39,878 bases of DNA, taken from IMG/VR virus record IMGVR_UViG_3300047994_000103, positions 1 to 39,878 of that record. One strand, 5' to 3'. Positions 6,095 to 25,410 of the stretch are shown here, piece after piece. The position numbers were made by a program, and so were the translations under genes. The notes beneath the pieces were generated by a model. The model saw only the letters and a list, made by a program, of their open reading frames with translations. It was not told the origin of the DNA and did no database searches. Position 1 is the first letter of the stretch, and each line of letters begins with the position of its first letter. Source of the stretch: a virus.

Positions 6095-6303
6095 TGTGGG
6101 AAATCCTCGTTAGGTGTGCCTGCTCGGCCTGTGACAATGTCGAGACAGACGCACGCGAAACAGATATCAGGCAAAGCCGGACAACGGTGGCGACGGAGCG
6201 TGGCGGAGCGAGCGTAGGCGCGACGTTCGCCTTCGCCTAGCTCCCGGGCAACACGGAGCGCGCTTGCGCGCAGCTCCGCTTCTTGTTCGTCTTTGGTCGT
6301 CAT
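6091..6303 (-). CDS. Hypothetical protein (70 aa)
   Basis: ORF track; ATGA overlap at 6300-6303 with the upstream gene. Confidence 0.5.
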   Translation of the reverse strand: MTTKDEQEAELRASALRVARELGEGERRAYARSATLRRHRCPALPDICFACVCLDIVTGRAGTPNEDFPQ

Positions 6304-7187
6304 GCCGCTTCATCCGATCCGAAAACGTGGTCCTCGATGCGCCGCAGTTGGTTAGCTGCCCACGACGCGCAGTCGCCTGCGTTGCAGATTGTAGCTGGCG
6401 CGATGACGGTGAAGGCCTGCGGATCGATGTCTTCGATGTCGATCGGCTCGAGCGGTTTTGCGTGGCCGATCGACTCGCCCGCGACGAAATTTTTCGGCAT
6501 ATGATTCCACGCATAGCAAAAAGAAAAGCAGCGAAAGAACGCGGGGCATGCAGTAGATGCTGCGAGCGTGGCAAGGTCGAAGCCGCCGCCGTAGGATTTT
6601 GTAACGGCGCGGATGCAGGACCGATTCGAGTCAGCGGTCCATACCATGCCGCTAACGATCTGCACGTCATAGCCGCTGTCCGTTAGGGACGATGCGAGCG
6701 CGAGCGCCGCTGCACCGCGCCAGAACATCTCTTGTGCGCCCGTGAAGCAATTAGCGCAAGCGTCCACGCCTATCACAACGCGCGTGGGCGCGAACGTGCG
6801 AGTGCGGTGCATACCGCGCCACGCGATGTCTAGCTGGCCGGACCGCACGCGGTCCATGTTTAACTCGTCGCCTTGATCGGTCCAGCGTGCACGGCGACGA
6901 ACATTACGCGAAAGCGGCATCTCGACGGACGCGATGGCGCTTTCGATTTTCGTTGCGCCTTCAGACCATCCCGTGTCCATTAGATTCCGAATGCGATCGC
7001 CGGACTTGAAGGGGAGCGCGTACCACGTTTCCGCGTCCAAGCCGCTGCCGGGTTCATTCCAATAGCTACGTGCCTGTGCGTGCATCGTGCCAGCGCCCGG
7101 CACATTGGCGATGTCCATGAGGGATTGCGCACTGTCGAACGTCACGCGGCCCTGTTTGCCGTTTACTTCGTATGTTGGGATGCTCAT
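6300..7187 (-). CDS. vWA-like partner of the AAA+ ATPase (CobT/ViaA-like; function tentative)
   Basis: 295-aa ORF coupled (TAATG) to the AAA+ gene. The strand RVVIGVDACANC, a following helix and the strand YDVQIVSG resemble a vWA beta-alpha-beta core. The MIDAS site is degenerate (D-A-C-A-N instead of D-x-S-x-S). Confidence 0.5.
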   Translation of the reverse strand: MSIPTYEVNGKQGRVTFDSAQSLMDIANVPGAGTMHAQARSYWNEPGSGLDAETWYALPFKSGDRIRNLMDTGWSEGATKIESAIASVEMPLSRNVRRRARWTDQGDELNMDRVRSGQLDIAWRGMHRTRTFAPTRVVIGVDACANCFTGAQEMFWRGAAALALASSLTDSGYDVQIVSGMVWTADSNRSCIRAVTKSYGGGFDLATLAASTACPAFFRCFSFCYAWNHMPKNFVAGESIGHAKPLEPIDIEDIDPQAFTVIAPATICNAGDCASWAANQLRRIEDHVFGSDEAA

Positions 7188-8524
7188 TAGGCGCGCTCCC
7201 CTACCTTGGCAAGTTCATCCGTGGTCCAGCCATTCAGCAAGTCCCGCTTAATTTCGGACTGAGGGATTCCGGCACTGCGAGCTAGCAGAGCTTTTTGCAA
7301 CATGCGGGTCGATACGACCCGGCGCAGCTTTGCGGATTCTGCGCTGGCGCGGATGCGTGCAACCCATTCACCAAAGTGCCGTATCTCATCGGGAGATGGT
7401 GCATCGGCAGCCTGAAACGGCGTAGCTGCTTTGTAGGGCATTCCGCACAGCGATGCCTCAAATGCTGGATCATAGGTCATCGTGACGATATACCAACGAT
7501 CCAGCGTTGCCGCGTCCAATTGCGAGCGTCCAACATACTGCGAGCCTGCACCGTTGCCGAACGTATTAGCGGCTGCAATCTGCACGGCCTGCGGATGGCG
7601 ATGAAGGCGTGTACCGCTGACCGGATTGTCGAACGCACCGTTGGCCGTGGCCGCATTCAGCGTCAGCAACATGTTCGCATCGCCTGCGTCGATTTCATCG
7701 TGCAGGAACACGCTCGGACGTTCGTAATTCTGACAAAAGACGCTCGATTGATACTCGAACTTGCCTTGTTCGCCAGTCGGCAATAAACGGCCAAGTAACC
7801 ACGACTCGGATGCGCCGGCGCTATATGACAGGGAATTGAACGGGACATTAAGGGCCTTGGCGATCTGCCCGGCGAGGTGCGTTTTGCCACAACCTGCGGG
7901 CCCAACCAGCATCACGTTCAAACCTACCGAACAGAGACGCAAGACTTTCTCGAACAAGGGATGCGCGCCGTCGATGCGGACATCGGGCAGTTCGTGACGC
8001 TTCAACACAATCTCGCGGGCCGGCACGGTGCCATCGCCACGGGGCGCGGCTTTGGCAATTTCTTCCTGTGCGATCTGCCGCACGCGATCCTCGTTGCAGG
8101 CTTCGCTTGCTGCTTGCTGCGCGATCTGCTGGACGAGGGCATCGATTGCACCTTGCGTGGAAGATTGCGGCTTTGGTGCCGGCATGGGGATGCCTTGGCT
8201 TTGGCCTGCGTCAGCCTGCGGCTTGGACTGCGCGCCGTCCATGAAGCGATCCAAGTCCAGCGGTTCGATTTTAGGCTTGCTCGGAGTCTCGCCCTTGGGC
8301 TCGGTCCGCGTGCCTTGCTTCCATTCGCCCGAGACGAAAATGCGCCACGCTTCGGCGCGCTCGTCATCCGTGTAATTGCTGGCGAGATACTCGCGGAATG
8401 CGGCTGCGGTGTTAGTGCGAGGGTCGCGGTGAAAGTCTCCCGCTTCGCCGTGCTTCGGCGCGTGGTCCTTGAGTGTTTTCCCGAGAGCAAGCATTTGACG
8501 ATATGAGAGTGTTTCGAGATTCAT
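7187..8524 (-). CDS. AAA+ ATPase, MoxR/CobS-like (AAA_5 type) with ~190-aa N-terminal extension
   Basis: Walker A LVGPAGCGKTHL and Walker B VFLHDEIDAG. AAANTFGNGAGSQYVGRSQLDAATLDRW resembles the CobS/MoxR sensor region. Confidence 0.85.
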   Translation of the reverse strand: MNLETLSYRQMLALGKTLKDHAPKHGEAGDFHRDPRTNTAAAFREYLASNYTDDERAEAWRIFVSGEWKQGTRTEPKGETPSKPKIEPLDLDRFMDGAQSKPQADAGQSQGIPMPAPKPQSSTQGAIDALVQQIAQQAASEACNEDRVRQIAQEEIAKAAPRGDGTVPAREIVLKRHELPDVRIDGAHPLFEKVLRLCSVGLNVMLVGPAGCGKTHLAGQIAKALNVPFNSLSYSAGASESWLLGRLLPTGEQGKFEYQSSVFCQNYERPSVFLHDEIDAGDANMLLTLNAATANGAFDNPVSGTRLHRHPQAVQIAAANTFGNGAGSQYVGRSQLDAATLDRWYIVTMTYDPAFEASLCGMPYKAATPFQAADAPSPDEIRHFGEWVARIRASAESAKLRRVVSTRMLQKALLARSAGIPQSEIKRDLLNGWTTDELAKVGERA

Positions 8525-10364: not shown

Positions 10365-11156
10365 ATGGCAAACCATTCGAGTGGGGGCGGTGGCGGAACG
10401 TCTGGGACCGTTACCGGCGCGAGCAATGAAGGCGCTGGCGTTCCTGTCTATGACTCTGCGAACAGCACGGCATCTAACCTGGCGTTTAAGACGCTGGTCC
10501 AAGGCTCAAATACTGTCCTGACAGATGGCGGCGCTTCTGGCGTCACGGTGGGGGTTGCGGCAAGTCCATCGTTCACGTCAATCCCGGCTGCTGGGGCTAT
10601 TGGCGGAACGACGCCGAGCACTGGTGCGTTTACGACTGTTTCTAGCACTGGAAACGCAACGTTAAACTCGGGTTCTGCTGGAACCGTAACTATCACTGGT
10701 GCAACTACAATCCAATCCGGCAGTGCTGCGACTGTAAGCATAAACAACGCTGCAGCAGCGGGTCAGACTTTCATCGGAAGCGGTTCTAACACTGGCGGCG
10801 TAACAATTGGCAATGCCGCCAACACCACGACTCTAAATTCTTCTTCCGTCAACGTCGCCAACACCGTCAACATCACGACTGCCGGAAAGGGCCTGATGCT
10901 GAAGGAAGGCACTAACGGTCGCTCTGGCACAGCGACCTTGGCAGCAGGCACCGTGACTGTCAGCAACACGACGATCACGGCCTTGAGCCGCGTGTTCCTC
11001 ACCAGCAACGGCCTCAATGGTTCGACGGCTATCGGCACGCTAGACGTGACCAAGATCAACGGGACCGGCTTCACGATCAACTCTTACAGTGCGGCGGCGG
11101 CCATTGTACCGACTGACACGCGCATCGTTCAGTATTTGATTACCGAAGGCGGCTAA
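10365..11156 (+). CDS. Fibre-like Gly/Ser/Thr/Asn/Ala-rich protein (263 aa)
   Basis: TAA-ATG abutting the previous gene. Almost no charged residues, and repetitive G-x-T/S-V-T-I type strands as in fibre or adhesin beta-structures. Confidence 0.6.
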   Translation: MANHSSGGGGGTSGTVTGASNEGAGVPVYDSANSTASNLAFKTLVQGSNTVLTDGGASGVTVGVAASPSFTSIPAAGAIGGTTPSTGAFTTVSSTGNATLNSGSAGTVTITGATTIQSGSAATVSINNAAAAGQTFIGSGSNTGGVTIGNAANTTTLNSSSVNVANTVNITTAGKGLMLKEGTNGRSGTATLAAGTVTVSNTTITALSRVFLTSNGLNGSTAIGTLDVTKINGTGFTINSYSAAAAIVPTDTRIVQYLITEGG

Positions 11157-11270: not shown

Positions 11271-11765
11271 ATGACCGTGGCCCAGAGCGTGCAATTGAAG
11301 GGAATGAGCAGACGCCACGATGCAATCGCAGAGTGGTTGATCGCCAATCCCGAAAAGAGCATGGCGGAATGTGCCTCCACCTTTGGTGTAACCCGCCCAT
11401 GGTTGTCCTCGGTTGTGCATTCGGACATTTTTCAAACCTATTACCGCAAGTTGCGTGACGGATACGTCGATGACCGTATCATGCCGATGCGCGACAAGTT
11501 ACAGGGCTTGGCGGTAGCCGCTATCGAGCGCATCAGCGACAAGTTGGAAGAAATCAACGACACGCGGCTTTTGAAGGACATCGCGGATATGTCGTTGAAG
11601 AATCTCGGGTTTGGAGCTCCCAAGGTTGGGGCTGCGGTGCAGATTAACAACAACACGTTTGCCTCGTCCTTGACCCCCAGCGAGCTTGACGCTGCGCGGG
11701 AGGCATACCGTGCCAGGCAACGCGATTTGACATCAATCGAAGACGGCCAAGTCGTCAATGGCTGA
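11271..11765 (+). CDS. terS: Putative terminase small subunit
   Basis: 164-aa ORF overlapping the terL start by 8 nt. N-terminal HTH-like segment (MAECASTFGVTRPWLSSVV). Called mainly from position; the start codon is uncertain (ATG 11271 or 11304). Confidence 0.55.
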   Translation: MTVAQSVQLKGMSRRHDAIAEWLIANPEKSMAECASTFGVTRPWLSSVVHSDIFQTYYRKLRDGYVDDRIMPMRDKLQGLAVAAIERISDKLEEINDTRLLKDIADMSLKNLGFGAPKVGAAVQINNNTFASSLTPSELDAAREAYRARQRDLTSIEDGQVVNG

Positions 11766-13233
11766 ACTGCCGCCCATCGAACCGGCAGAGGCCGCAGCAA
11801 TAGGCGCCGTTGATGGAGTCTTTTTTTCGCGCTATTTCTTCCCCCGAACCGCTCGTCAAGCCCCGGCCCCATTTGAGTGCAAAGTGTGGGACTTGCTGGA
11901 CTCCCAAGAAGACCACTTTGCCGCGATGATGATTTTTCGCGGGGGTGCCAAGACCACTCGGTTGAGAATTTTCACCGCCAAACGAGTCGCCTACGCTCTG
12001 TCGCGCACCATCATTTATGTGGGCAAGTCGCAGGACCACGCGATTCGTTCAATCAAGTGGTTGAAGAAGCAGATTGAGTTTAATCGCCCGTTTGCCACGA
12101 CATTTGGTCTATCCAAAGGCTCCAAATGGACCGACGAGGAAATCGAAATTTTCAACTCGGTAGCCGGCGTGACCATCACCATCGTCGCATTCGGCATCAC
12201 CGGCTCTATCCGTGGTGTCAACATTGACGACTATCGCCCCGATTTGATTATCGGGGACGATCTGTGCGATCCCGAGAACTCAAAGACGATCGAGCAACGC
12301 GAGAAAATAAAAGACCTATGGTTCGCGGACCTGCGTCAATCGCTTGCCCCCGTGAGCGAGAATCCCGATGCAAAAATGGTCCTTCTCGGTACGATGCTCG
12401 ACCCGGAAGACGTGACAGCGACCTGTTGCAATGACTCGGGCTGGAAGTCCCTTATTGTTCCGATACTCGACGAGCATGGCGAGTCGACTTGGCCGGATCG
12501 CTTTTCCACCGAAACAATTCTTGCCGACCGCGACCAATATCTCCGCCTCAACAAACTCTCGTTGTGGATGCGTGAGTGTATGTGCGTGTGGCAAGCGCCC
12601 GAGGATTCCGTTTTTCTTCCAGAGTGGTTCGAGAAACGCTATGACACAGTACCCCCGTTCTTGCATATCTACGCTGCCAGCGACACAGCAGTTACAAAAA
12701 CCGACCGGGCTGACTACACAGAACACGGGGTGTTTGGAGTCGACTACAACGGGGACTACTACGTCCTTGATTGGTGGTTTGGCAAGCGCGGTAGCGACGA
12801 ATGGATCGAGCGCCAGTGCGACCTTATCAAACGACACAAGCCCCTCATTTGGTTCGGAGAAACAGGACAGATTCGGAACGCAGTTGAGCCTTTTTTGAGG
12901 AAGCGAATGCAAGAACGCGGGACGCTAGCGCGGCTGGAATGGTTGCCGAGTGTTTCCGACAAAGTCACGCGGGCACAGGGCATCGTCAACATCGCTGCAA
13001 GCGGCAAATTGTGGTTCCCGCGCGAGGCTACATGGGTCGGGCACGTTTTGGCTCAATTGCTTGCGTTTCCCTCTCGCGGTGTTCACGACGATGCAGTTGA
13101 CGTTCTGTCCCTGTTGGCTCGCGGGCTGGATCGCGTCAAACTCCCGCGCCAGCAACGCTCGTTGGTCGACGATTTTCAGGACTCCAACGTCTTTTTTGGC
13201 AATTTTGGGGGAGCCCAAGCGTGGATGCGGTAG
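11758..13233 (+). CDS. terL: Terminase large subunit
   Basis: Walker A-like FRGGAKTT and Walker B-like DLIIGDDL. RNaseH-like nuclease aspartates in IYAASDTA and GVHDDAVDVLS. Size and position fit. Confidence 0.93.
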   Translation: MAELPPIEPAEAAAIGAVDGVFFSRYFFPRTARQAPAPFECKVWDLLDSQEDHFAAMMIFRGGAKTTRLRIFTAKRVAYALSRTIIYVGKSQDHAIRSIKWLKKQIEFNRPFATTFGLSKGSKWTDEEIEIFNSVAGVTITIVAFGITGSIRGVNIDDYRPDLIIGDDLCDPENSKTIEQREKIKDLWFADLRQSLAPVSENPDAKMVLLGTMLDPEDVTATCCNDSGWKSLIVPILDEHGESTWPDRFSTETILADRDQYLRLNKLSLWMRECMCVWQAPEDSVFLPEWFEKRYDTVPPFLHIYAASDTAVTKTDRADYTEHGVFGVDYNGDYYVLDWWFGKRGSDEWIERQCDLIKRHKPLIWFGETGQIRNAVEPFLRKRMQERGTLARLEWLPSVSDKVTRAQGIVNIAASGKLWFPREATWVGHVLAQLLAFPSRGVHDDAVDVLSLLARGLDRVKLPRQQRSLVDDFQDSNVFFGNFGGAQAWMR

Positions 13234-13369: not shown

Positions 13370-15625
13370 ATGGAAGACGTACCTGCAACTGGCAAAAGTC
13401 AAGAAGACACAGATTTTCATTGGCTAAAAGAGAAATTTGAGATGTGTTTGACAGCAGAAGCGACCAATCGCCAGTTTATGATTGATGATTTGCGTTTTCG
13501 TGCGGCATCTCCTGATGAACCGTGGCAGTGGCCCGACGACATTCAAGCGAGCCGTAAAGCCGATCCTGGTGGTGCGCGTCCGTGCCTCACTGTCAATTAT
13601 CTCCCGCAACACGTTTTGCAAATCACGAACGAGATTCGCCAAAACCGACCCGCAATCAAAGTTCTTCCGCTTAACGATGATGCTGACGTTGAGATTGCCA
13701 AGGTTCTTAATGGAATAATCCGCAACATCGAGAACATTTCCGACGCGGATATAGCCTATGACATCATGGTAGACAACCAAGTTACTGCCGGGGAAGGTTT
13801 TGTCCGAGTCGTGACGCAATACGTTGGTGATAACTCTTTCGATCAGGAACTCCGCATTGTCCCAGTCCCCAATGCAATGTCTGTATACATGGACCCAGAA
13901 GCAAACTACGACGGTTCAGGCGCAAAAATCGTCTTTATCACTTGCATGGAACCGAAAGAAGAAATTGAAGCCGAGTATGGTGATGAGGACCAGCCATTTG
14001 ACTGGCAGACTGCCGCGCAGGGTGACGAGAAAGGGATTTGGTTTGACCAAAATTCTATCCGAACCTGCGAAGCCTACAGGCTTGTTAACGTGAAAAGCTC
14101 CATGAAGAAATGGGATACGGGAGAAGTAACCTATGACGACGAGCAGCCACCAAGCAAAGCAAAGAGCAAGGGTGGAAAACCGCCTGAACCGATCCGCACG
14201 CGCACGTTCTACAAAAAGAAAGTGGTTTGGTATAAGTTATGCGGCGAGCGAATTTTGGAAACTCGTGACACAATTTTTACGCAAATTCCTGTGGCTCGCG
14301 CTGTGGGAAATGTGTTTTTGATCGAGGGCGAGCGGCGTGTTAGCGGTATCGTGCGTAACGCGAAAGACGCTCAACGCATGTACAACTATTGGACCTCGCA
14401 AGAAGCAGAATTTCTTGCCATGGCCCCCCGCGCCCCGTTTGTTGGCGCAGCCGGCCAGTTTGAAGGCTTCGAGAAAGATTGGAAGGTTGCAAACGTCCTA
14501 AACTTGGCTTATTTGCAGTACAATCCTGTGTTAGAAGAAGGTCAATTGGCTCCGCCTCCGCAGCGTGTTGCCCCTCCTATGGTATCGGAAGGTTTGATGC
14601 AGGCTAAAGCCGGCTCAATGGCTGATATCAAAGGCACAACCCATCAATACGAAGCTGCATTGGGACAAAAGTCAAACGAAGTTAGTGGCCGAGCCATTTT
14701 GTATAAGAATCGTGAGGGCGATACCGCTGCATTTCATTATGGGGACAACGCCCGTCGCGCAATTCGATATCTCGGGCGCATTCTTGTAGACGCAATCCCG
14801 AAAATCTATGATTCAAAACGAGCTGCCCGCGTGATGGGCGAAGACGGAAACTACGATTTTGCCATGATTGACCCCGATCAGCCTGAACCGACGCAGCCTG
14901 TGATGGACGAAGCGTCTCAAACTCAGATTGGAACTATTTACAACATTGGAATAGGCAAATACGATGTTGCAGTCACGACCGGACCCTCGTACACCACCAA
15001 GCGTCAAGAAAACCTTGATGTTATGACGCAATTGATCCAAGCCCAGCCGTCGCTGTGGCAAGTTATTGGAGATTTGTTTGTTAAAGACCTCGACAGTGGG
15101 CGTGCCGATGAAATGGCCTTGCGTCTTCGTGCCACACTTGCTCCTGCTGTTCAAGCTGCGTTGAAAGCACAAGAAGGCCCAGCCAAGTCTCCGCAGCAAC
15201 TACGCGAAGAAAACATGCAACTTCACATGGCGTTGCAACAAGCAACGCAACAAATTCAGCAAATGATGCAGGAGTTGCAGCTCGCAAAGACCAAACAACT
15301 TGAAACAGCAATCAACGCGCATACTAAACTTGCTGAGTCCGAGAATTCGCTGCAAGCAGCGCAGGTCAAGGGGACTTCCGATGCTCATGTGGCTGCAATC
15401 ACGGCTCTCGGGAACATTGAAGCAACCCATGCGCAAGGTGCAGCCGATCACAAGACTGCTGCAATTAAAAGTGTTGCAGATTTGTTGATTGACCACCAAC
15501 AGAATCTTGCACAACTTGCCCAGCCACCTGCACAGCCTCAACAGCCTGCCGCTCAAGGCGCTCCAAAGGTCAACGAGAACATTTCGCTTTCTGCGCATCC
15601 GGAAGCTCTCGGAGGTATTCAATGA
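13370..15625 (+). CDS. Portal protein (P22 gp1-like, with helical C-terminal barrel region)
   Basis: 751 aa. EIRQNRPAIKVLP and TAGEGFVRVVTQY parallel the P22 portal segments EMRQNPIDVLYRP and EAGVGAWRLVTDY (from memory). Gln/Ala-rich helical C-terminus. Follows terL. Confidence 0.9.
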   Translation: MEDVPATGKSQEDTDFHWLKEKFEMCLTAEATNRQFMIDDLRFRAASPDEPWQWPDDIQASRKADPGGARPCLTVNYLPQHVLQITNEIRQNRPAIKVLPLNDDADVEIAKVLNGIIRNIENISDADIAYDIMVDNQVTAGEGFVRVVTQYVGDNSFDQELRIVPVPNAMSVYMDPEANYDGSGAKIVFITCMEPKEEIEAEYGDEDQPFDWQTAAQGDEKGIWFDQNSIRTCEAYRLVNVKSSMKKWDTGEVTYDDEQPPSKAKSKGGKPPEPIRTRTFYKKKVVWYKLCGERILETRDTIFTQIPVARAVGNVFLIEGERRVSGIVRNAKDAQRMYNYWTSQEAEFLAMAPRAPFVGAAGQFEGFEKDWKVANVLNLAYLQYNPVLEEGQLAPPPQRVAPPMVSEGLMQAKAGSMADIKGTTHQYEAALGQKSNEVSGRAILYKNREGDTAAFHYGDNARRAIRYLGRILVDAIPKIYDSKRAARVMGEDGNYDFAMIDPDQPEPTQPVMDEASQTQIGTIYNIGIGKYDVAVTTGPSYTTKRQENLDVMTQLIQAQPSLWQVIGDLFVKDLDSGRADEMALRLRATLAPAVQAALKAQEGPAKSPQQLREENMQLHMALQQATQQIQQMMQELQLAKTKQLETAINAHTKLAESENSLQAAQVKGTSDAHVAAITALGNIEATHAQGAADHKTAAIKSVADLLIDHQQNLAQLAQPPAQPQQPAAQGAPKVNENISLSAHPEALGGIQ

Positions 15626-18415: not shown

Positions 18416-19138
18416 ATGCAAGCGTCCGCCACAGACATCTACACCCGCGCGTTAGGTATCTGTGGCATTTTTGCGCCCGGTGACATCATCCCCGGAGAAG
18501 ATGCGGGCTTTGCTTTCGCCACTCTTAACACAATGGTTGACTCGTGGAATACCGAGTCGCTTTTTGTTTACACAATTCAAGACGTAAAAGTTGGTGGGGT
18601 ATATCCCGTCCTTCCAACAAACACGAATATCCTAACAATTGGACCCACGGGGTCCATTGTCGTAACCGAACGTCCAACTCAACTGATGGACACGATGTTC
18701 GTAAGGATCAATTCTGTCGATTATCCTGTTCGACTTATCAACCAAGAGCAATATAATTCGCTTAACTTAAAAACAAACAATTCATCCTATCCGATGTATT
18801 GTTATTGCGATTACGAGTATCCTACTGCAACTCTTTATTTTTATCCGATTCCAAATCAACCTTGCGAGTTGCATATCCAGATTGAACAACAGCTTATTCA
18901 GTTTCCGGATGTTGGTACCAAGTTAAATTTTCCACAAGGATATGTTCGAGCACTTCAATACGCGCTTGCAGTAGAGTTGAGTGGGTCGTATGGAAGATCG
19001 CTTTCGCCAACAGATCAAAAGGTAGCAGCAAAAGCGATTTACAACATTAAACGTCGAAACAATCAAACCCCTGAACTCGGATTTCGTAACGCACTTCTTG
19101 ATGTTGGCGGTGCTTACAACATTTTCTTGGGCCAATAG
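18416..19138 (+). CDS. Head-tail adaptor, P22 gp4-like (tentative)
   Basis: The N-terminus DIYTRALGICGIFAPGDIIPGEDAGFAFATLNTMVDSWN parallels P22 gp4 [40 protein letters not shown] (from memory). Synteny supports it. Confidence 0.55.
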   Translation: MQASATDIYTRALGICGIFAPGDIIPGEDAGFAFATLNTMVDSWNTESLFVYTIQDVKVGGVYPVLPTNTNILTIGPTGSIVVTERPTQLMDTMFVRINSVDYPVRLINQEQYNSLNLKTNNSSYPMYCYCDYEYPTATLYFYPIPNQPCELHIQIEQQLIQFPDVGTKLNFPQGYVRALQYALAVELSGSYGRSLSPTDQKVAAKAIYNIKRRNNQTPELGFRNALLDVGGAYNIFLGQ

Positions 19139-20565
19139 TGAAGAAAATACCTTTTGTCGGCCCTACATATCAAACACGATCTCGCTTTGTAGAAAGCGAG
19201 AAATGCACTAATTTGTACTTGGAGAAAATTCCAAACGGTCAACGCACGGATATGATGCTGGTAAGCACTCCGGGTTTGCGTAACATTGGTACAATTGGTT
19301 CTGGGCCTATCAGGGGTACTTTTGCACTTCCGGGTGTCGCATATGTAGTTTCGGGCAATGGCTTTTACAGCTACAGCACTACCGGGGTGTCAACACTCTT
19401 GGGTAGTTTTAGCACCACGTCCGGTCTTGTTTCTATGGCCTACGATGGTCAACAGTTAGTTATGGTGGACGGCCTATACGGGTACGTTTGGAACACTTCT
19501 ACTTCCAAGTTTGTTAAAATCACGGACCCCGACTTTCCTAACGGTGTTACCTTTGTTTTCTACGAAGATACCTATTTCATTGTGTCCGGGGACGGAACAA
19601 ATCACTTTTATATTTCTGCAAATCTTGATGGAACTATGTGGAATGGTCTTGACTACGCTTCAATTGAAAGTGAGGAAGCTTCGCTCCAAGTCGCTTTCCC
19701 TATCCATGATGAATTGTGGCTCTTTGGTCTAAAAACAATTGAAGTCTGGGTCAACACCGGGGCTTCAACTTTTCCTTACCAGAAAAGTGGCACGGTACTG
19801 GTTGAACACGGTTGTGTTGCCCCATGGACTGTTTGCAAGCTCGATAACACTTTGTTTTGGGTAGGTCGGGACGAAACTGGTATTGGTCCGGTTTGGCGAG
19901 CAGATGGTTACAAACCTGTACGAGTGTCGAATCCCTATATTGAGCGGTTGATTGAGACCTCAACTAATCCTTACGGCTATCAAGCCTTTACCTACATGCA
20001 AGATGGGCATTTGTTTTACGTTTTGTGCTTTGTCGACATCGACCAGACCTTTGTTTACGACGTTACAACGTCGGAATGGCATGATCGCGCTTGGAAAGAA
20101 GCAAACAACAACAATATGCACAGGTGGCGTGCTGGAACATTCATGGCGTTCAACAACCAATTACTTTGTGGGGATTGGCAAGACAACCGTCTGTATATTC
20201 TTGACAAAAATTACTACCTTGACGATCAAAACGCCATTGCCCGAATTCGTCGTACTTCTGTGTTTGAGTTGACTCAAGCCAGAGTCTTCTACACCATGCT
20301 GCAAGTTGACATGGAAGTTGGGGTTGGAACAGCCACAGGACAGGGTTTTGCTCCACAACTTCGCCTACGTTGGTCTGACGATGGCGGACAGACTTTTGGC
20401 CCTTACCGTACTCAAACAGTCGGTCCCATTGGCTCGTATCGCACTCGTGTTAAATTTAATCGCCTTGGTAGTGGTCGTAATCGAGTTTGGGAGATTTCCA
20501 TTACTGATCCTGTAGCGGTTACTATTCTGGGTGCGTTTGCTGAACTAGAACCGGGGACTTGGTAA
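19138..20565 (+). CDS. Tail accessory factor, P22 gp10-like (tentative)
   Basis: 475 aa (P22 gp10 is about 472 aa). GTG start overlapping the previous stop. Beta-propeller-like repeats. The C-terminus RLGSGRNRVWEISITDPVAVTILGAFAELE resembles the gp10 end. Synteny supports it. Confidence 0.6.
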   Translation: MKKIPFVGPTYQTRSRFVESEKCTNLYLEKIPNGQRTDMMLVSTPGLRNIGTIGSGPIRGTFALPGVAYVVSGNGFYSYSTTGVSTLLGSFSTTSGLVSMAYDGQQLVMVDGLYGYVWNTSTSKFVKITDPDFPNGVTFVFYEDTYFIVSGDGTNHFYISANLDGTMWNGLDYASIESEEASLQVAFPIHDELWLFGLKTIEVWVNTGASTFPYQKSGTVLVEHGCVAPWTVCKLDNTLFWVGRDETGIGPVWRADGYKPVRVSNPYIERLIETSTNPYGYQAFTYMQDGHLFYVLCFVDIDQTFVYDVTTSEWHDRAWKEANNNNMHRWRAGTFMAFNNQLLCGDWQDNRLYILDKNYYLDDQNAIARIRRTSVFELTQARVFYTMLQVDMEVGVGTATGQGFAPQLRLRWSDDGGQTFGPYRTQTVGPIGSYRTRVKFNRLGSGRNRVWEISITDPVAVTILGAFAELEPGTW

Positions 20566-21032
20566 TGCCAGACACCAGCGTACTAGATCTTTTTCCTGTC
20601 CGAATTAAATTTGTTAATCCGGATGGCACCCTGACTTCGGAAGCGTATCGTGCACTTCGTCGTGTTGGGTTAATGGTTTCGGGAATTGATGACAATGGAA
20701 TTGGAGAAGTATTCGCAGACGTTTCTGGCATCGCTGCTCAACAAACACCACCCATTCCTGAGCAAGATTATGGTACTATTGCTGGGTCGATCGCTGCTTT
20801 GCAACGTCAAATTGATGATTTGTTGTTTCCCGAAGTCTACGCTCAAGCATCTGCAACAACCTCTACTCCTCCTGTAGTTTCTGCACCCCAGCCTCCAACG
20901 CATTTGTTTGCAAACCAGTCGTATACTGTCAATGACTTTTCTCAAATTGTTGTGGCATCCCCAATAACCCTCGAAGCTGGTGCGGTCATCATTAAAGGCA
21001 TCGAATCCAAACTCATTAGGATTATAGCATGA
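20565..21032 (+). CDS. Tail-associated hypothetical protein (155 aa; occupies the P22 gp26 position)
   Basis: Track ORF 20559-21032 trimmed to ATG 20565 (TAATG overlap). ATGA overlap with the fibre gene. Confidence 0.55.
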   Translation: MPDTSVLDLFPVRIKFVNPDGTLTSEAYRALRRVGLMVSGIDDNGIGEVFADVSGIAAQQTPPIPEQDYGTIAGSIAALQRQIDDLLFPEVYAQASATTSTPPVVSAPQPPTHLFANQSYTVNDFSQIVVASPITLEAGAVIIKGIESKLIRIIA

Positions 21033-23281
21033 CTGCCCAAACTGGAACAACTAGCGCAGCAGATAGCTATCATGAAGGTGACACCAAGCCTGCTGCTCCG
21101 GCGACTGGTTCGTACCAGCGTTTATTGTATTGCAGATCAGGTGCTTTTTATTCTCTCGATGAAACTGGAACAGAAGTAGCTGTTTCAGGTCTAACAAGTG
21201 TTGTTAATTCTGATGGTACAATTACTGTCACTACATCCTCGGGGTCTGCGACAGTTTCTCGGGCCGCCATTATTGGCGATGTCGCTATTCCAGCCGGCTC
21301 AAATACGGCAACTCTTGCTTCGGTTGCAACTGCTGGGACGACGGGCTCTGCGACAGTCATCCCAGTCATTACGATTGACGCAAAAGGCCGTGTTACATCA
21401 ATTACTACCGCAGCTACGGTCGGCTCAGTAACAAACTCGGACGGAACAATCACGGTATCTGGCACAGCGACTGCGCCAGTCGTGAGTCGTGCGGCGATCG
21501 CTGGCGATATCTCTGTCCCTGCCAATAGTAACACCGCAACTCTACCAAACGTCAATACCAGCGGTGCAGGTACTTACAACAATGTCACCACGAATGCCAA
21601 GGGCCAAGTTACTTCCGGATCGAATGTCGCATATTTAACAAGTGCAGTTACTTCTGTAACTGGTACTTCTCCGATTTCGTCATCTGGTGGAACCACGCCA
21701 GCGATTAGTATTGCGGCTTCTAGCCCGTCGACTGCTGGTTCCATGTCCATTTCGCAGTACAACAAACTTGCTGGATTGGTAACGGGTCTAAATGGAGTTA
21801 TTGACGTTACGCAGCAAGGAACAAACGCGGTATTGACTAGCAACACGGGCGCTGCAAACAACACTGCGCTTGCGACTATTATGTCGGCTGCTGCTAGCGG
21901 CTCGGTTCTGTATTTTCCGGGCGGCTTTTACCCGTTTGCATCGAACATTGCTGTCCCTGCCAAGGTTTTCTTGTTCCAAGGCGCACTTGCAGGCGTCAAT
22001 GGCAACCTGACAGGTTTCGAGTGGACCTCGAATATCGCAGGCGATCTCATCACGCTTACGTCGGGAAATTATTACACCCAATTCCGCGACATCCTTTTTA
22101 CTACCAGTTTGGCTCAAACAGCCGGCTCCGTGGTGAACACCAACGGCAACGCCTATATTAACTTCTATCGGTGCGCTTTCTCAGGTCTGAGCAGCAGCAA
22201 TACGCTGTTTAATGGGGTCAACTACAACGGCAGCGCAGGTGGCGAAATTTCCACCATCAGCGACTGCACCTTCACCAACTTTACCGGCACCGCCATCATC
22301 GGCGGCTGCAACTTGCAGACGTTTGTGGTGCATGGCACCACGATCAACGGTGGCCTGTCCTCAACAACGGGCGCTGTTTGCGGCATCAACATCACGCTGG
22401 GTGGTGCTGTTCAGATCAACGACTCTGACGTGATCGGCTGCCAGAACAACCTGCTGATTAACCCGACCTCGGGGAACGTTGTCGCATCCGTGTTTGCGAT
22501 GAACACGTACTTCGACAACGCTTTTGGATCATGTGTCAAGATCACAGGTGCAGGTGCCACGGTCCGCACCAAGTTCACCGGATGCTCTTTTACGGTGGCG
22601 GCCAACCAGACTGGCGTATCGGCGTTCGAGTGCTCGACTACGGTCTCCGCAGGAGCCCAAGGGCTCGACATCGTCAACTGTAATATCTTGAACACGTTTG
22701 GTGCGGCCTCGTGCAATGGCTTCAACATCACAGGTGGCGCGGACTATTCAATCCAAGCCTGCAACGTGGCCGGATGGGCAACGGGGATCAACCTAACGCC
22801 GAACCCTACCGCTGGCAGTACGATTGCCCGCATCCAGAACAACGTCATCGGCACCAGCGGTGGGTACGGTGTTAATACGGTCGGTATTTTGTTAAACGCC
22901 GGCACGGTGGCTTACGGCGCGCTTGAGATTCAAAACAACGATTGCGTTGGCAGCACCACGCCGCTGACCAACAACCTGACAACTAACATACCGACGAATG
23001 CGAGCCGCTACCGCATCACGGACAACGCCGGAATTAACCCGAAAGGCACAGTCACAACCCCGGCGTTTCCCGCGTCAACCACGGTTGTTACTAATACTAC
23101 GGGGTATCGCATTTCGGTGTTTTTTAAATCCGGTGCAACCCCCCCGACTGTCATGACCATCAACGGTGTCAGCACGGTGCTGCCGCTGGCCAGCCAGATC
23201 ACTACGATCCCGCTTGATCCCGGCGGGACTTTCGCAAACACTTACACGGTCGCCGGAACGTGGACTTGGGTCGCCAACTAA
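21029..23281 (+). CDS. Tail fibre / tailspike with tandem N-terminal fibre repeats and C-terminal parallel beta-helix
   Basis: Two copies of a ~70-aa module ending in (I/T)DAKGRVTS / TNAKGQVTS. GSMSISQYNKLAGL fibre motif. Beta-helix-type repeats (IQNNVIGTSGGYGVN, IQNNDCVG). Confidence 0.85.
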   Translation: MTAQTGTTSAADSYHEGDTKPAAPATGSYQRLLYCRSGAFYSLDETGTEVAVSGLTSVVNSDGTITVTTSSGSATVSRAAIIGDVAIPAGSNTATLASVATAGTTGSATVIPVITIDAKGRVTSITTAATVGSVTNSDGTITVSGTATAPVVSRAAIAGDISVPANSNTATLPNVNTSGAGTYNNVTTNAKGQVTSGSNVAYLTSAVTSVTGTSPISSSGGTTPAISIAASSPSTAGSMSISQYNKLAGLVTGLNGVIDVTQQGTNAVLTSNTGAANNTALATIMSAAASGSVLYFPGGFYPFASNIAVPAKVFLFQGALAGVNGNLTGFEWTSNIAGDLITLTSGNYYTQFRDILFTTSLAQTAGSVVNTNGNAYINFYRCAFSGLSSSNTLFNGVNYNGSAGGEISTISDCTFTNFTGTAIIGGCNLQTFVVHGTTINGGLSSTTGAVCGINITLGGAVQINDSDVIGCQNNLLINPTSGNVVASVFAMNTYFDNAFGSCVKITGAGATVRTKFTGCSFTVAANQTGVSAFECSTTVSAGAQGLDIVNCNILNTFGAASCNGFNITGGADYSIQACNVAGWATGINLTPNPTAGSTIARIQNNVIGTSGGYGVNTVGILLNAGTVAYGALEIQNNDCVGSTTPLTNNLTTNIPTNASRYRITDNAGINPKGTVTTPAFPASTTVVTNTTGYRISVFFKSGATPPTVMTINGVSTVLPLASQITTIPLDPGGTFANTYTVAGTWTWVAN
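21197..21643 (+). repeat. Intragenic tandem duplication (~70-aa fibre module, 2 copies)
   Basis: Copy 1: SVVNSDGTITV..SRAAIIGDVAIPAGSNTATL..IDAKGRVTS. Copy 2: SVTNSDGTITV..SRAAIAGDISVPANSNTATL..TNAKGQVTS. Confidence 0.8.
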
Positions 23282-23290
23282 GGAAGTGCC

Positions 23291-23632
23291 ATGCAACGCT
23301 TACCTCTTAAACTTGTCAATAATACGGTCCTAGCCACAACTGCTGGGGTATTATATACCTCCCCTTTCGGGACCAAAACCACAATCAGCGCCTTGACCTT
23401 TACCAACTCGTCAACAAGCGTAGCAACAATGACCGTCTATATTGTTCCTGCTGCTGGAAGCTTGGGTCAAGGTAATCTGGTTATTTCAGCGCGCCAACTT
23501 GCTATCGGCGAATCCTATATTGCGACTCCAGTCATCGGACAAACACTCGAAGCCGGAGATACTTTGCAAGCTTTCGCTTCGGCTGGGACGGCAATTTCTG
23601 TTACTGCTTCGGGCTACTCTACGGTGTCCTGA
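23291..23632 (+). CDS. Small beta-rich hypothetical protein (113 aa)
   Basis: AAGGAAG SD; directly follows the fibre gene. Confidence 0.6.
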   Translation: MQRLPLKLVNNTVLATTAGVLYTSPFGTKTTISALTFTNSSTSVATMTVYIVPAAGSLGQGNLVISARQLAIGESYIATPVIGQTLEAGDTLQAFASAGTAISVTASGYSTVS

Positions 23633-24171
23633 TGAAGAACTTTCTCCGCATTGGTCAAAACTGGGTTGTCATGCCACTGTTGTTAGAACTTCAACGCAAT
23701 CCGCACTTGTGGAATCAGAATCTTTTGAGAACCACGCATGTAAATAGCCCACACGCGCAGGTTGAAGACATTTGGCTTCGATTTAACGAGATTCCCGAAG
23801 ACGTTTCTCGTGTTCTTGACGAACACGAGTCAATTGACTATCCTGCAATGAAAGAACTTGTTAATGCACGCTTACTTGTTATGAGCGTTTTTCAAGCTAC
23901 CTCAGGTATCCGGCTTGGGCGTGCAATGATTACTAAATTGTCTCCCGGAAAGTCAATCACCCCTCATGTAGACAGCGGTTCCCACGCTGCTTACTACGAC
24001 CGATACCATTTGTGTTTGCAAAGTAGCCCCGGTTGTTTGTTTCGTGGTGACAACGAACAGGTTTCTATGCAACCGGGCGAATTGTGGTGGTTTCAGAACC
24101 AATCCATGCACGAAGTCGTCAACAACTCGACCGTTGATCGTATCCATCTTATTGTGGACGTTCATCACTAG
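23632..24171 (+). CDS. Asp/Asn beta-hydroxylase-family 2OG-Fe(II) oxygenase-like cupin
   Basis: LSPGKSITPHVDSG ... YDRYHLCL ... MQPGELWWFQNQSMHEVVNNSTVDRIHLIVD matches the H-x-D ... H facial triad and the C-terminal signature of the AspH/LpxO family. Confidence 0.7.
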   Translation: MKNFLRIGQNWVVMPLLLELQRNPHLWNQNLLRTTHVNSPHAQVEDIWLRFNEIPEDVSRVLDEHESIDYPAMKELVNARLLVMSVFQATSGIRLGRAMITKLSPGKSITPHVDSGSHAAYYDRYHLCLQSSPGCLFRGDNEQVSMQPGELWWFQNQSMHEVVNNSTVDRIHLIVDVHH

Positions 24172-24172
24172 C

Positions 24173-24631
24173 ATGATTACATATCAGATAGAACAGTGGC
24201 CTGATATTGTTACAGAAATGGTCCCACTTTTTGCCGACCACTGGAAAGAAGTGGCTGTGAATCAAGACACAGTTCCTCTTGATATTGATTACGCCCAATA
24301 CGATATTCTTTATTCTCAAGGTCAACTTCACATAACAACTGCCCGAAAAGATGGCATTTTAATTGCATATGACGCCCGTATTATCCGGACGCATATCCAT
24401 TACAAATCTACCTTGTTTGCTTTTCCAGATGTTTATTATGTTGCTCCTTTGTTTAGACGGGGGAGGACTGTTTGGAAGTTTTTTCAATTCACCGAGGATA
24501 CTTTGCGATCACGAGGAGTTAAGGTTATCTTGACAATGACCAAAAAACACTTGGACGCCTCGCGTTTGTTTGCTGCTCTGGGTCACACTGAAACAGAAGC
24601 GGTGTTTATGAAATTCGTGGGAGAACGCTGA
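24173..24631 (+). CDS. GNAT-like acyltransferase candidate (152 aa)
   Basis: Track ORF 24044-24631 trimmed to ATG 24173. The overall pattern (HWKEV..., DGILIAY, YVAPLFRRGRTVWKFF, LRSRGVKVI) resembles phage GNAT proteins, but the CoA-binding motif is imperfect. Confidence 0.45.
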   Translation: MITYQIEQWPDIVTEMVPLFADHWKEVAVNQDTVPLDIDYAQYDILYSQGQLHITTARKDGILIAYDARIIRTHIHYKSTLFAFPDVYYVAPLFRRGRTVWKFFQFTEDTLRSRGVKVILTMTKKHLDASRLFAALGHTETEAVFMKFVGER

Positions 24632-25410
24632 TGGCTATTGTAGCAGCAGGTATTGGCGCAGCAGGCGTTATTGGTGGCGCAGTTATCTCCGGAAATGCCT
24701 CCCAAAGCGCCGCAAATACCCAACAAAACGCGGCTAACACTGCCACTGCGTTGCAAGGCCAGATTTATAACAACAACGTCACTCTCGAACAGCCATACAA
24801 CCAAGCCGGTTTGCAGTCCCTTTCGACGTTGCAGCAGTATCTCGGTCAAGGCAACAATACAATCGGGTCGGCCTACGGCTCGTTTTTGCAGCCTTTCAAC
24901 GATACGACGTTTCAAAACGACCCGGGGTATCAGTTCCAATTGCAACAGGGCCAACAGGCTCTGGAGCGCCAAAATGCCGCAGGTGGCACTTTGCTTTCGG
25001 GGAAGGCGACAAAAGATTCCCAGAATTTCGCTCAAGGTCTCGCCTCGACCGGCTACGACGATGCCTTTAATCGCTATAACACTGAACAGGGCAATATCTA
25101 CAATCGCTTGATGGGTTTGACGAATCTTGGTCAAAGTGCAGCGAGTTTCACCGCGCAGCAGGGAAGCAACTACGCTAACCAAGCCGGTCAAAACATTATC
25201 GGAGCGGGAAATGCCGCTGCGGCTGGTCAAGTAGGAACTGCAAATGCCATCAGCAATGGTCTTAATGGTGTAGGAAACAGCGCCTTGACTGCGTATTTGT
25301 TGAATAACTCTCAACAAAACTACGGCTCTGGGTATACAAATTCCAACAATCAAACAAGTCCCTATAACAATGCCTATGAGGGTACCGGCTACGACCCCGG
25401 TGTGGATTAA
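24631..25410 (+). CDS. Ejection/internal virion protein (P22 gp7 position)
   Basis: 259 aa with a Gly/Ala hydrophobic N-terminus MAIVAAGIGAAGVIGGAVISG. Gln/Asn/Gly-rich. Contains a DPGYQFQLQQGQQALERQNAAGGTLLSG motif that I associate, from memory, with podovirus internal proteins. Confidence 0.55.
   Translation: MAIVAAGIGAAGVIGGAVISGNASQSAANTQQNAANTATALQGQIYNNNVTLEQPYNQAGLQSLSTLQQYLGQGNNTIGSAYGSFLQPFNDTTFQNDPGYQFQLQQGQQALERQNAAGGTLLSGKATKDSQNFAQGLASTGYDDAFNRYNTEQGNIYNRLMGLTNLGQSAASFTAQQGSNYANQAGQNIIGAGNAAAAGQVGTANAISNGLNGVGNSALTAYLLNNSQQNYGSGYTNSNNQTSPYNNAYEGTGYDPGVD

Follow-up and report, generated by a model that had tools for sequence, protein, structure and literature searches.

The 39,878-base stretch of DNA analysed here (the window) is the entire contig of a short-tailed phage, IMG/VR virus record IMGVR_UViG_3300047994_000103, and this report concerns two adjacent genes within it. 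One encodes an AspH-family Fe(II)/2-oxoglutarate (2OG) oxygenase and the other a GNAT-fold acyltransferase; they stand directly before the gene for a P22 gp7-like ejection protein (IVP-B), and in related phage loci the same two genes are closely coupled and sometimes fused into a single polypeptide. We judge the chances to be about even that the pair forms a two-enzyme, non-structural morphogenesis module, which opens the ejection operon and modifies ejection proteins. This reading stands on the two enzyme folds, the conserved catalytic residues, the gene order, the translational packing, and the co-occurrence and fusion of the two genes.

The oxygenase, the GNAT and their coupling

The 179-aa oxygenase matches the Pfam family PF05118 (Asp_Arg_Hydrox) at E=2.2e-19, with 70.3 bits against a cut-off of 22.6, a score that by profile comparison lies far above chance. 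A word-index search uncovered 314 homologues, and all homologues listed carry PF05118; when 1.84 billion cluster representatives were searched exhaustively with a profile, 4,458 matched at E<=1e-3, 348 of them at E<=1e-30. A first-pass annotation, made from the sequence, had picked out the motifs PHVDSG, RYHLCL and GELWWFQNQSMHEVVNNS..RIHLIVD, all of which are found in the translation, and had proposed an AspH-family oxygenase with an H-x-D…H iron triad. That assignment holds: the triad, H112-x-D114…H160, is invariant at all three positions among 46 homologues with a mean identity of about 50%. In a phmmer alignment of residues 83-179 with residues 650-744 of full-length human AspH (9fvu_A), T101, H112, R124, H126, H160 and R170 are paired with AspH S668, H679, R688, H690, H725 and R735, respectively. 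Of these AspH residues, we take S668, R688, H690 and R735 to be the 2OG ligands, and H679 and H725 to be the Fe ligands. The phage residues T101, R124, H126 and R170 are invariant or at least 90% conserved among the 46 homologues, and the oxygenase thus appears, from the alignment, to keep the AspH-type cosubstrate-binding residues. In addition, D114 supplies a carboxylate that is absent from AspH itself, which has Gly681 at that position.

Structure prediction, which the first-pass annotation had named as a check along with alignment of the triad, leads to the same family. The AlphaFold (AF2) model of the oxygenase has a pLDDT of 89.4, and its best PDB neighbours by Foldseek are L-proline cis-4-hydroxylase (4p7w), proline 3-hydroxylase (1e5r/1e5s), a nucleoside-antibiotic hydroxylase, and AspH, with a Foldseek probability of 1.0 against 4p7w, 1e5s, 5apa and 6yyu. 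Proteins of this type have so far been annotated only generically, for example as an auxiliary metabolic gene of Limnohabitans phage DC33. Some relatives carry two oxygenase domains in tandem (P0322, P0327, P0299, P0355, P0379, P0317 and P0383), and in some of these a C-terminal region of about 600 aa follows, in proteins of 964-965 aa.

The 152-aa GNAT starts at an ATG inside a longer GTG open reading frame (ORF). It falls in phrog_1249 ('acetyltransferase', 1.4e-8), and 39 of 47 relatives match PF00583 (best 1.2e-11). Its AF2 model reaches a pLDDT of 95.4, and Foldseek aligns the model with AAC(3)-Ia, RimI and GNA1 (E 1e-7 to 1e-8, TM score about 0.7) and with the N-acetyltransferase of phage VpV262 (TM score 0.85). 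The model therefore predicts a GNAT fold with confidence, as the first-pass annotation had suggested from the layout of the gene. Among 95 sequences the polar residues H23, Y66, D86 and K124 never vary, and 93 of the sequences have R95; this pattern of conservation suits an enzyme rather than a scaffold. The acyl-CoA pyrophosphate-binding motif A of GNAT proteins is R/Q-x-x-G-x-G/A, and the corresponding motif of this family is R95-x-x-x-x-[G/A]100, with G or A at position 100 in 90 of the 95 sequences.

PF05118 also includes LpxO and OlsC, and in ornithine-lipid synthesis OlsC is paired with the GNAT-like OlsB. Both facts count in favour of envelope remodelling late in infection, with lipid A, aminolipids or polysaccharide of the host altered by an LpxO-like hydroxylase working alongside an acyltransferase; so does the origin of the module-bearing loci, mostly from Burkholderiales genomes or metagenome-assembled genomes (MAGs). 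However, neither protein has a hydrophobic or transmembrane segment (KD19 maximum 1.03 for the oxygenase and 0.81 for the GNAT), the oxygenase is far smaller than the membrane enzymes of about 300 aa, the matches in sequence and structure are to AspH and the proline hydroxylases, and the context is an ejection operon. We consider envelope remodelling the least probable of the readings discussed here, and very remote. The first-pass annotation had spoken of an AspH/LpxO signature and offered envelope lipid as one possible target. The AspH half of that signature stands, on PF05118 and the aligned residues; an LpxO identity was rejected on topology and size, and with the LpxO-defining membrane anchor absent the lipid target is not upheld.

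The coupling of the two genes was followed in 80 IMG/VR loci seeded with the oxygenase, scored by tblastn and hidden Markov models (HMMs), and in 76 IMG/VR loci seeded with the GNAT that have sufficient upstream sequence. In the window, the three plus-strand ORFs of the first-pass annotation (113, 179 and 152 aa) are present and are packed as tightly as it described: the junctions between the 113-aa protein and the oxygenase, the oxygenase and the GNAT, and the GNAT and IVP-B read TGATG, TAG-C-ATG and TGATG, with overlaps or gaps of 1 nt. The GNAT lies directly downstream of the oxygenase in 77 of the 80 oxygenase-seeded loci, often with a 4-nt overlap, and a gp7-like IVP-B follows downstream in 65 of the 71 that have room for it. 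The pair is also found in 11 of 14 genome or MAG loci, mostly Burkholderiales, and in Limnohabitans phage DC33, and the same three-gene arrangement recurs in the isolate Pseudomonas phage PfAn1. The record of DC33 (PQ492659), a 39-kb phage, assigns it to the Inoviridae, a classification that looks wrong because the oxygenase-GNAT pair is typical of podophage loci.

Looked at from the other side, the association is asymmetric, since the oxygenase is present in just 17 of the 76 GNAT-seeded loci. The oxygenase is an add-on to the GNAT slot in one phage sublineage. Two close relatives with the same IVP-B subfamily (L153 and L157) have no oxygenase, and in MW202665 an oxygenase alone stands directly before a gene labelled 'DNA ejection'.

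The strongest evidence of functional coupling is gene fusion. Nine single polypeptides that join the two enzymes (50%-identity cluster representatives) are found among the best 150 sequences of the exhaustive search, always with the oxygenase N-terminal and the GNAT C-terminal, and with E-values to the GNAT profile of 1e-27 to 1e-53; the invariant residues of both halves are kept. One fusion, P0292, is identical on contigs from independent samples, and its gene stands directly upstream of one for a gp7-like protein (E=4.6e-40); proteins of 489 and 428 aa come next. For another fusion, P0257, no locus was found in IMG/VR. Together with the 77 coupled loci, these fusions bear out the suggestion of the first-pass annotation that the enzymes work together within a late operon.

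Gene order and the IVP-A slot

The phage is a podophage with a P22-like tail. On the plus strand the order is large terminase, portal, scaffold, major head protein, gp10-like head-closure protein, the region of interest, and the lysis genes, while the replication block lies on the minus strand. A near-identity DNA search with the 19-29 kb part of the window against 50,697 phage records gave no match and no close sequenced relative; the nearest phage carrying the same module is PfAn1, with a protein identity of 42%. Coordinates of the features discussed are collected in Table 1.

Table 1. Features of the window, with positions, strand and basis of assignment
Feature	Position	Strand	Basis
Large terminase	11758-13233	+	
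Portal	13370-15625	+	
Head-closure/packaged-DNA stabilisation protein (P22 gp10-like, Hc3)	19138-20565	+	phrog_578, E=4e-114
157-aa protein in the variable stretch between Hc3 and oxygenase	20559-21032	+	Function not assigned
750-aa T/A/G/S/N-rich fibre- or spike-like protein	21029-23281	+	Composition; N+D+S+T = 37%
113-aa beta-rich protein, optional neighbour upstream of oxygenase	23291-23632	+	Only PHROGs of unknown function (1276, 20100, 26609)
AspH-family Fe(II)/2OG oxygenase, 179 aa, soluble, minimal double-stranded beta-helix	23632-24171	+	PF05118, AF2, Foldseek
GNAT-fold acyltransferase, 152 aa, IVP-A slot, directly upstream of the gp7-like gene	24173-24631	+	phrog_1249, AF2, Foldseek, synteny with P22 and T7
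Ejection protein IVP-B, P22 gp7 family, 259 aa, hydrophobic N-terminus	24631-25410	+	phrog_598 'DNA ejection', 1.1e-35
Putative ejection protein, 455 aa	25413-26780	+	Position and size only (P22 gp20 = 471 aa)
Putative ejection protein, 617 aa	26777-28630	+	Position and size (P22 gp16 = 609 aa)

The conserved order in this part of the genome is a gp10-like gene, a variable stretch, the oxygenase, the GNAT, a gp7-like ejection protein, and two larger proteins. The gp10-like Hc3 gene is the conserved upstream landmark of the module, with a homologue upstream and on the same strand in 69 of the 80 oxygenase-seeded loci. In PfAn1 (L001, 3850-5986) the gp10-like gene lies on the strand opposite the oxygenase-GNAT-ejection operon, and on the fusion contig L195 (1386-3190) the upstream genes, among them a 518-aa ORF without an Hc3 match, are also on the opposite strand. 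From these two arrangements it follows that the ejection module can be its own transcription unit, starting at or just before the oxygenase.

P22 gp7 matches the same PHROG as the IVP-B of the window, phrog_598, at 2e-95; a direct BLASTP comparison of the 259-aa IVP-B with P22 gp7 was not significant. The KD19 maximum of this protein is 2.17, at residue 1. Two further ORFs overlap its gene in other frames (24583-25353, minus strand, 256 aa; 24653-25111, plus strand, 152 aa) and, given the low complexity of its A/G/N/Q-rich coding sequence, are probably artefacts. The 455-aa protein has no family match in Pfam or PHROG, and the N-terminus of the 617-aa protein matches phrog_29864 ('transglycosylase') weakly, at 3.4e-4.

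In P22 the order of genes is gp10 (Hc3), gp26, gp14 (151 aa), gp7 (229 aa), gp20 (471 aa) and gp16 (609 aa), and in T7 it is gp12, gp13 (138 aa), gp14, gp15 and gp16. The sizes of 152, 259, 455 and 617 aa in the window thus parallel the P22 series gp14-gp7-gp20-gp16, and the GNAT holds the IVP-A slot, that of T7 gp13 and P22 gp14. GNAT-only versions occupy the same slot in Zobellviridae Vibrio phages and in MW202796. No GNAT relative has a Pfam match to PF11090 or PF11039, and the equivalence that we draw with gp13 and gp14 is one of position and fold, without a claim of sequence homology.

P22 gp14 is tied to morphogenesis by its GenBank labels ('head morphogenesis', 'head assembly'), and T7 gp13 is called in Pfam and GenBank a (probable) 'scaffold protein… required for Gp6.7 incorporation'. 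Hardies et al. (2016; PMC4819975, section 9) described an acetyltransferase family in the IVP-A slot of many phages of the phiRIO-1 group, and reported that T7 IVP-A (gp13) also matches acetyltransferases by HHpred, that P22 and epsilon15 have IVP-A and IVP-B homologues in syntenic position, and that IVP-A is needed for morphogenesis and yet is not kept in virions (PMC4819975). In the virion proteome of phiPsa17 (PMC4517105), the detected proteins likewise did not include the gp13 homologue. The first-pass annotation, which knew of no characterised example of fibre or envelope modification in this gene context, had missed that the GNAT stands in this known slot. An acetyltransferase in the IVP-A slot is therefore already known, and what is new is the coupled or fused oxygenase-IVP-A module. 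A search of the literature library at hand found no paper linking a 2OG oxygenase to ejection proteins.

The genes between Hc3 and the oxygenase are much less constant. The 157-aa protein has no Pfam or PHROG match and no homologue in the related loci. The 750-aa protein, whose Asn/Asp/Ser/Thr-rich composition had been noted correctly in the first-pass annotation, has no Pfam, PHROG or PDB match, and tblastn found no match to it in the first 86 loci fetched (which include the 80 oxygenase-seeded ones) nor in the 50,697 phage records. The gap from the gp10-like gene to the oxygenase measures 3067 nt in the window, against 133-2354 nt (median 938 nt) in relatives. Considering this much shorter gap and the lack of homologues in relatives, the 750-aa fibre is an insertion peculiar to this phage, which lies outside the conserved module and is not the enzymes' partner.

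Could the pair nevertheless hydroxylate (on Asp or Asn) and acylate the adjacent tail fibre or spikes, as the first-pass annotation had proposed? The genes do come right after this T/S/N-rich fibre in the window, bacterial beta-hydroxylase operons have been predicted to modify co-encoded tail-collar or collagen-like proteins (Iyer et al., PMC2938197), and the 113-aa protein has a homologue in Vibrio phage VvAW1 that follows a tail-collar fibre gene. The loci nevertheless speak against the fibre as substrate: the median gap is too small for such a fibre, the oxygenase starts less than 400 nt from the gp10-like gene in 9 of the 69 loci, and on the co-occurrence with fibre genes that the first-pass annotation had named as a check, this fibre is found in none of the 80 oxygenase-seeded loci and the conserved neighbour is IVP-B. 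We give modification of the fibre hardly more credence than envelope remodelling. The placement 'between fibre and ejection proteins' was accurate as a position; the two enzyme genes are better read as the first genes of the ejection-protein module, given that the fibre is not conserved.

The 113-aa beta-rich protein, rightly listed in the first-pass annotation as preceding the pair, is detected by HMM in 45 of the 80 oxygenase loci. It has no Pfam relative as a single sequence, and none in Pfam or PDB as a 14-sequence profile. Neither it nor the 750-aa fibre is a core part of the module. In VvAW1 (L100, 6001-6839) the IVP-A slot, between the 113-aa homologue and the DNA-ejection gene, is filled by a cupin-looking protein of 164 aa. 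This protein belongs to phrog_24280 ('tail fiber adhesin', a label that looks doubtful) and has no profile similarity to the oxygenase or the GNAT; its domain also occurs as a C-terminal fusion in the oxygenase homologues P0285 and P0293 (E 5.5e-13 and 1.7e-9).

Two other parts of the window deserve a brief mention. A 263-aa protein (10365-11156, plus strand) has a C-terminal K1-lyase_C domain (PF24146, 1.2e-14), named for the C-terminus of a K1 capsule-specific lyase; its gene lies upstream of the terminase genes, distant from the tail genes, and it may be a second small spike. In the early region (6300-8524, minus strand), a 445-aa AAA_5 (MoxR/CobS-like) ATPase (phrog_249, 'porphyrin biosynthesis') adjoins a 295-aa DUF7192 protein, and the two resemble a CobS/CobT-like pair.

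Possible substrates of the pair and competing explanations

How might the two enzymes serve the ejection operon? In the pathway that we propose, both would act together, late in infection, on an ejection protein encoded downstream, with the gp7-like IVP-B as the first candidate. With O2 and 2OG, the oxygenase would place a hydroxyl on a side chain of that protein; the GNAT would then take an acyl group from acyl-CoA and attach it either to this hydroxyl or to an amine. The modification would take place while the ejection proteins are being loaded into the procapsid, or earlier, and would confer on them the competence to assemble or, later, to penetrate the envelope. We infer the catalytic activity of both proteins, the identity of their substrate, the order of the two reactions and their non-structural status.

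Several results weigh against this pathway. The gp7-like IVP-B subfamily is found with the oxygenase in 17 of 17 loci and in only 2 of 59 loci without it, a correlation that may reflect shared ancestry. The conserved IVP-B residues P55, P98, Y100, F102 and K128 are not discriminating, because they are common to two oxygenase-lacking relatives, and no Asp, Asn, Pro or Lys of IVP-B distinguishes oxygenase-positive from oxygenase-negative phages, of which just two were negative. Oxygenase homologues with 54-55% identity are encoded at chromosomal loci of Variovorax that have neither a GNAT nor virion genes, so the oxygenase can work in another context. The closest structural matches of the oxygenase include enzymes that act on free amino acids. 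On the side of the GNAT, the copy in the window has V100 where motif A usually has G or A, has no Pfam match of its own and fails the Pfam GNAT thresholds; finally, hhalign of the GNAT family against P22 gp14, T7 gp13 and a 9-sequence gp13 profile (from 8 loci) gave probabilities below 1%.

The degenerate motif A and the failed Pfam models are also what might be expected if both folds served, without catalysis, only as surfaces that chaperone or scaffold the ejection proteins during loading, and the scaffold label of gp13 in the databases points the same way. It is difficult to see, however, why metal- and 2OG-binding residues would then be strictly conserved at about 50% mean identity, why the polar residues of the GNAT would be invariant, and why both sets of residues would be kept in the fusions; moreover, most members of the GNAT family still score as GNAT. 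Purely non-catalytic assembly factors therefore appear very improbable to us, if marginally less so than modification of the fibre.

A second alternative is that the pair is directed at the host, modifying host proteins late in infection, or after packaging and ejection, for take-over or counter-defence; the position in the operon would then reflect timing or packaging rather than the substrate. There is a precedent in Rac, a GNAT of phiKMV-like phages that triggers cleavage of the alpha subunit of host RNA polymerase (PMC7552054). The Variovorax loci mentioned above are consistent with such a role: one of them (L006/L183; L006 7392-9339) is an integrative island of the integrase/AlpA/primase type, in all three loci (L183-L185) the oxygenase has downstream of it a conserved, A/Q-rich protein of 226 aa, and in L006 a SET-domain protein (PF00856, 2.8e-9) is encoded upstream. 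Against this stand the near-invariant place beside IVP-B, the translational packing, the location of a fusion, too, directly before IVP-B, and the connection of T7 and P22 IVP-A with particle morphogenesis (PMC4819975; GenBank notes). We regard host-directed effectors as unlikely, though worth keeping in mind.

The third alternative involves small molecules: the substrate of the oxygenase would be a free amino acid or metabolite, and its hydroxylated product would be N-acetylated by the GNAT. The best structural matches of the oxygenase, free L-proline hydroxylases and a nucleoside-antibiotic hydroxylase, are in line with this possibility, and the GNAT matches include aminoglycoside, polyamine and glucosamine-6-P acetyltransferases. 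However, the proline hydroxylases have 280-290 aa, of which the 179-aa enzyme matches only about half (TM score 0.71 by query and 0.47 by target); on that ground it would lack the parts that enclose the substrate. No transporter or other pathway gene is present, and the fixed place before IVP-B and the morphogenetic role of IVP-A favour a protein as client. A small-molecule pathway is accordingly improbable, more so than a host-directed role.

To return to the modification of ejection proteins, a broader version can be put forward tentatively, as a possibility that we rate clearly below the module itself. Perhaps the IVP-A proteins in general (T7 gp13, P22 gp14 and their relatives) are true protein acyltransferases that mature the ejection proteins, and one lineage has added an oxygenase to produce a hydroxyl-plus-acyl mark. 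With the same reservation, this lineage would consist of widespread soil and freshwater phages, mainly in Burkholderiales genomes and MAGs. If the broader version is true, the infectivity of a particle would depend on O2, iron and 2OG in the cell that produced it.

What T7 gp13 and P22 gp14, the small proteins encoded ahead of the ejection proteins, actually do has been unclear for decades; infectious particles require such a protein, which they do not keep, at least in the case of T7 gp13. A slot in which a recognisable GNAT is coupled or fused to a catalytic-looking enzyme argues for modifying enzymes rather than scaffolds, and the module reading predicts specific mass shifts on the ejection proteins, making the question of IVP-A function directly testable. 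Confirmation would provide, to our knowledge, the first case of a 2OG oxygenase acting on proteins of a DNA-delivery channel, and would tie the competence of the virion to the supply of oxygen, iron and 2OG. A host protein as target would instead make the module a new take-over device of two enzymes.

Comparison with known systems

The closest counterparts of the GNAT are the IVP-A proteins, namely T7 gp13 (PF11090), P22 gp14 (PF11039) and those of the VpV262/SIO1 type (PMC4819975). They are likewise small (138-155 aa) and have an acetyltransferase fold, and their genes lie between those for the tail tube or head closure and that for IVP-B (gp14 in T7, gp7 in P22). The GNAT of the window differs in being preceded by and coupled to a 2OG oxygenase, to which it is fused in relatives, and its family keeps recognisable GNAT motifs while having no significant profile similarity to gp13 or gp14. 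The ejection module as a whole is of the P22 type, with a gp7-family IVP-B (phrog_598) followed by two larger proteins.

The oxygenase shares its Pfam family, its fold, and its Fe and 2OG residues with human AspH (PDB 5jqy, 6yyu, 9fvu). Human AspH, however, is a protein of 758 aa with a TPR domain and a type II membrane anchor, both of which the phage protein lacks; it has a two-His iron site with Gly681, where D114 gives the phage enzyme a classical three-residue triad, and its EGF-domain substrates are absent in the phage. The free-proline hydroxylases (4p7w; 1e5r/1e5s) have the same H-x-D…H triad and are the best matches in both sequence (phmmer 6e-5 to 9e-5) and structure (Foldseek E about 1e-10); unlike the phage protein, which aligns to about half of their length, they function in secondary metabolism on free amino acids. 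LpxO and OlsC belong to the same Pfam family but are membrane-bound, whereas the phage protein is soluble, small and without a lipid-related context.

Two further systems combine some of these elements. The beta-hydroxylase operons described by Iyer, Abhiman, de Souza and Aravind (2010; PMC2938197) bring together an oxygenase and modifying enzymes, acetyltransferases included, with a structural substrate predicted to be co-encoded. These operons are cellular, include sulfotransferases and PhyH-type oxygenases, and are known from predictions only; in the phage the partner is a single GNAT and the candidate substrates are ejection proteins. Rac of the phiKMV-like phages (PMC7552054) is likewise a small GNAT whose gene borders the structural cluster, but that gene lies upstream of the first structural gene rather than before IVP-B, its target is the alpha subunit of the host RNA polymerase, and it has no oxygenase partner.

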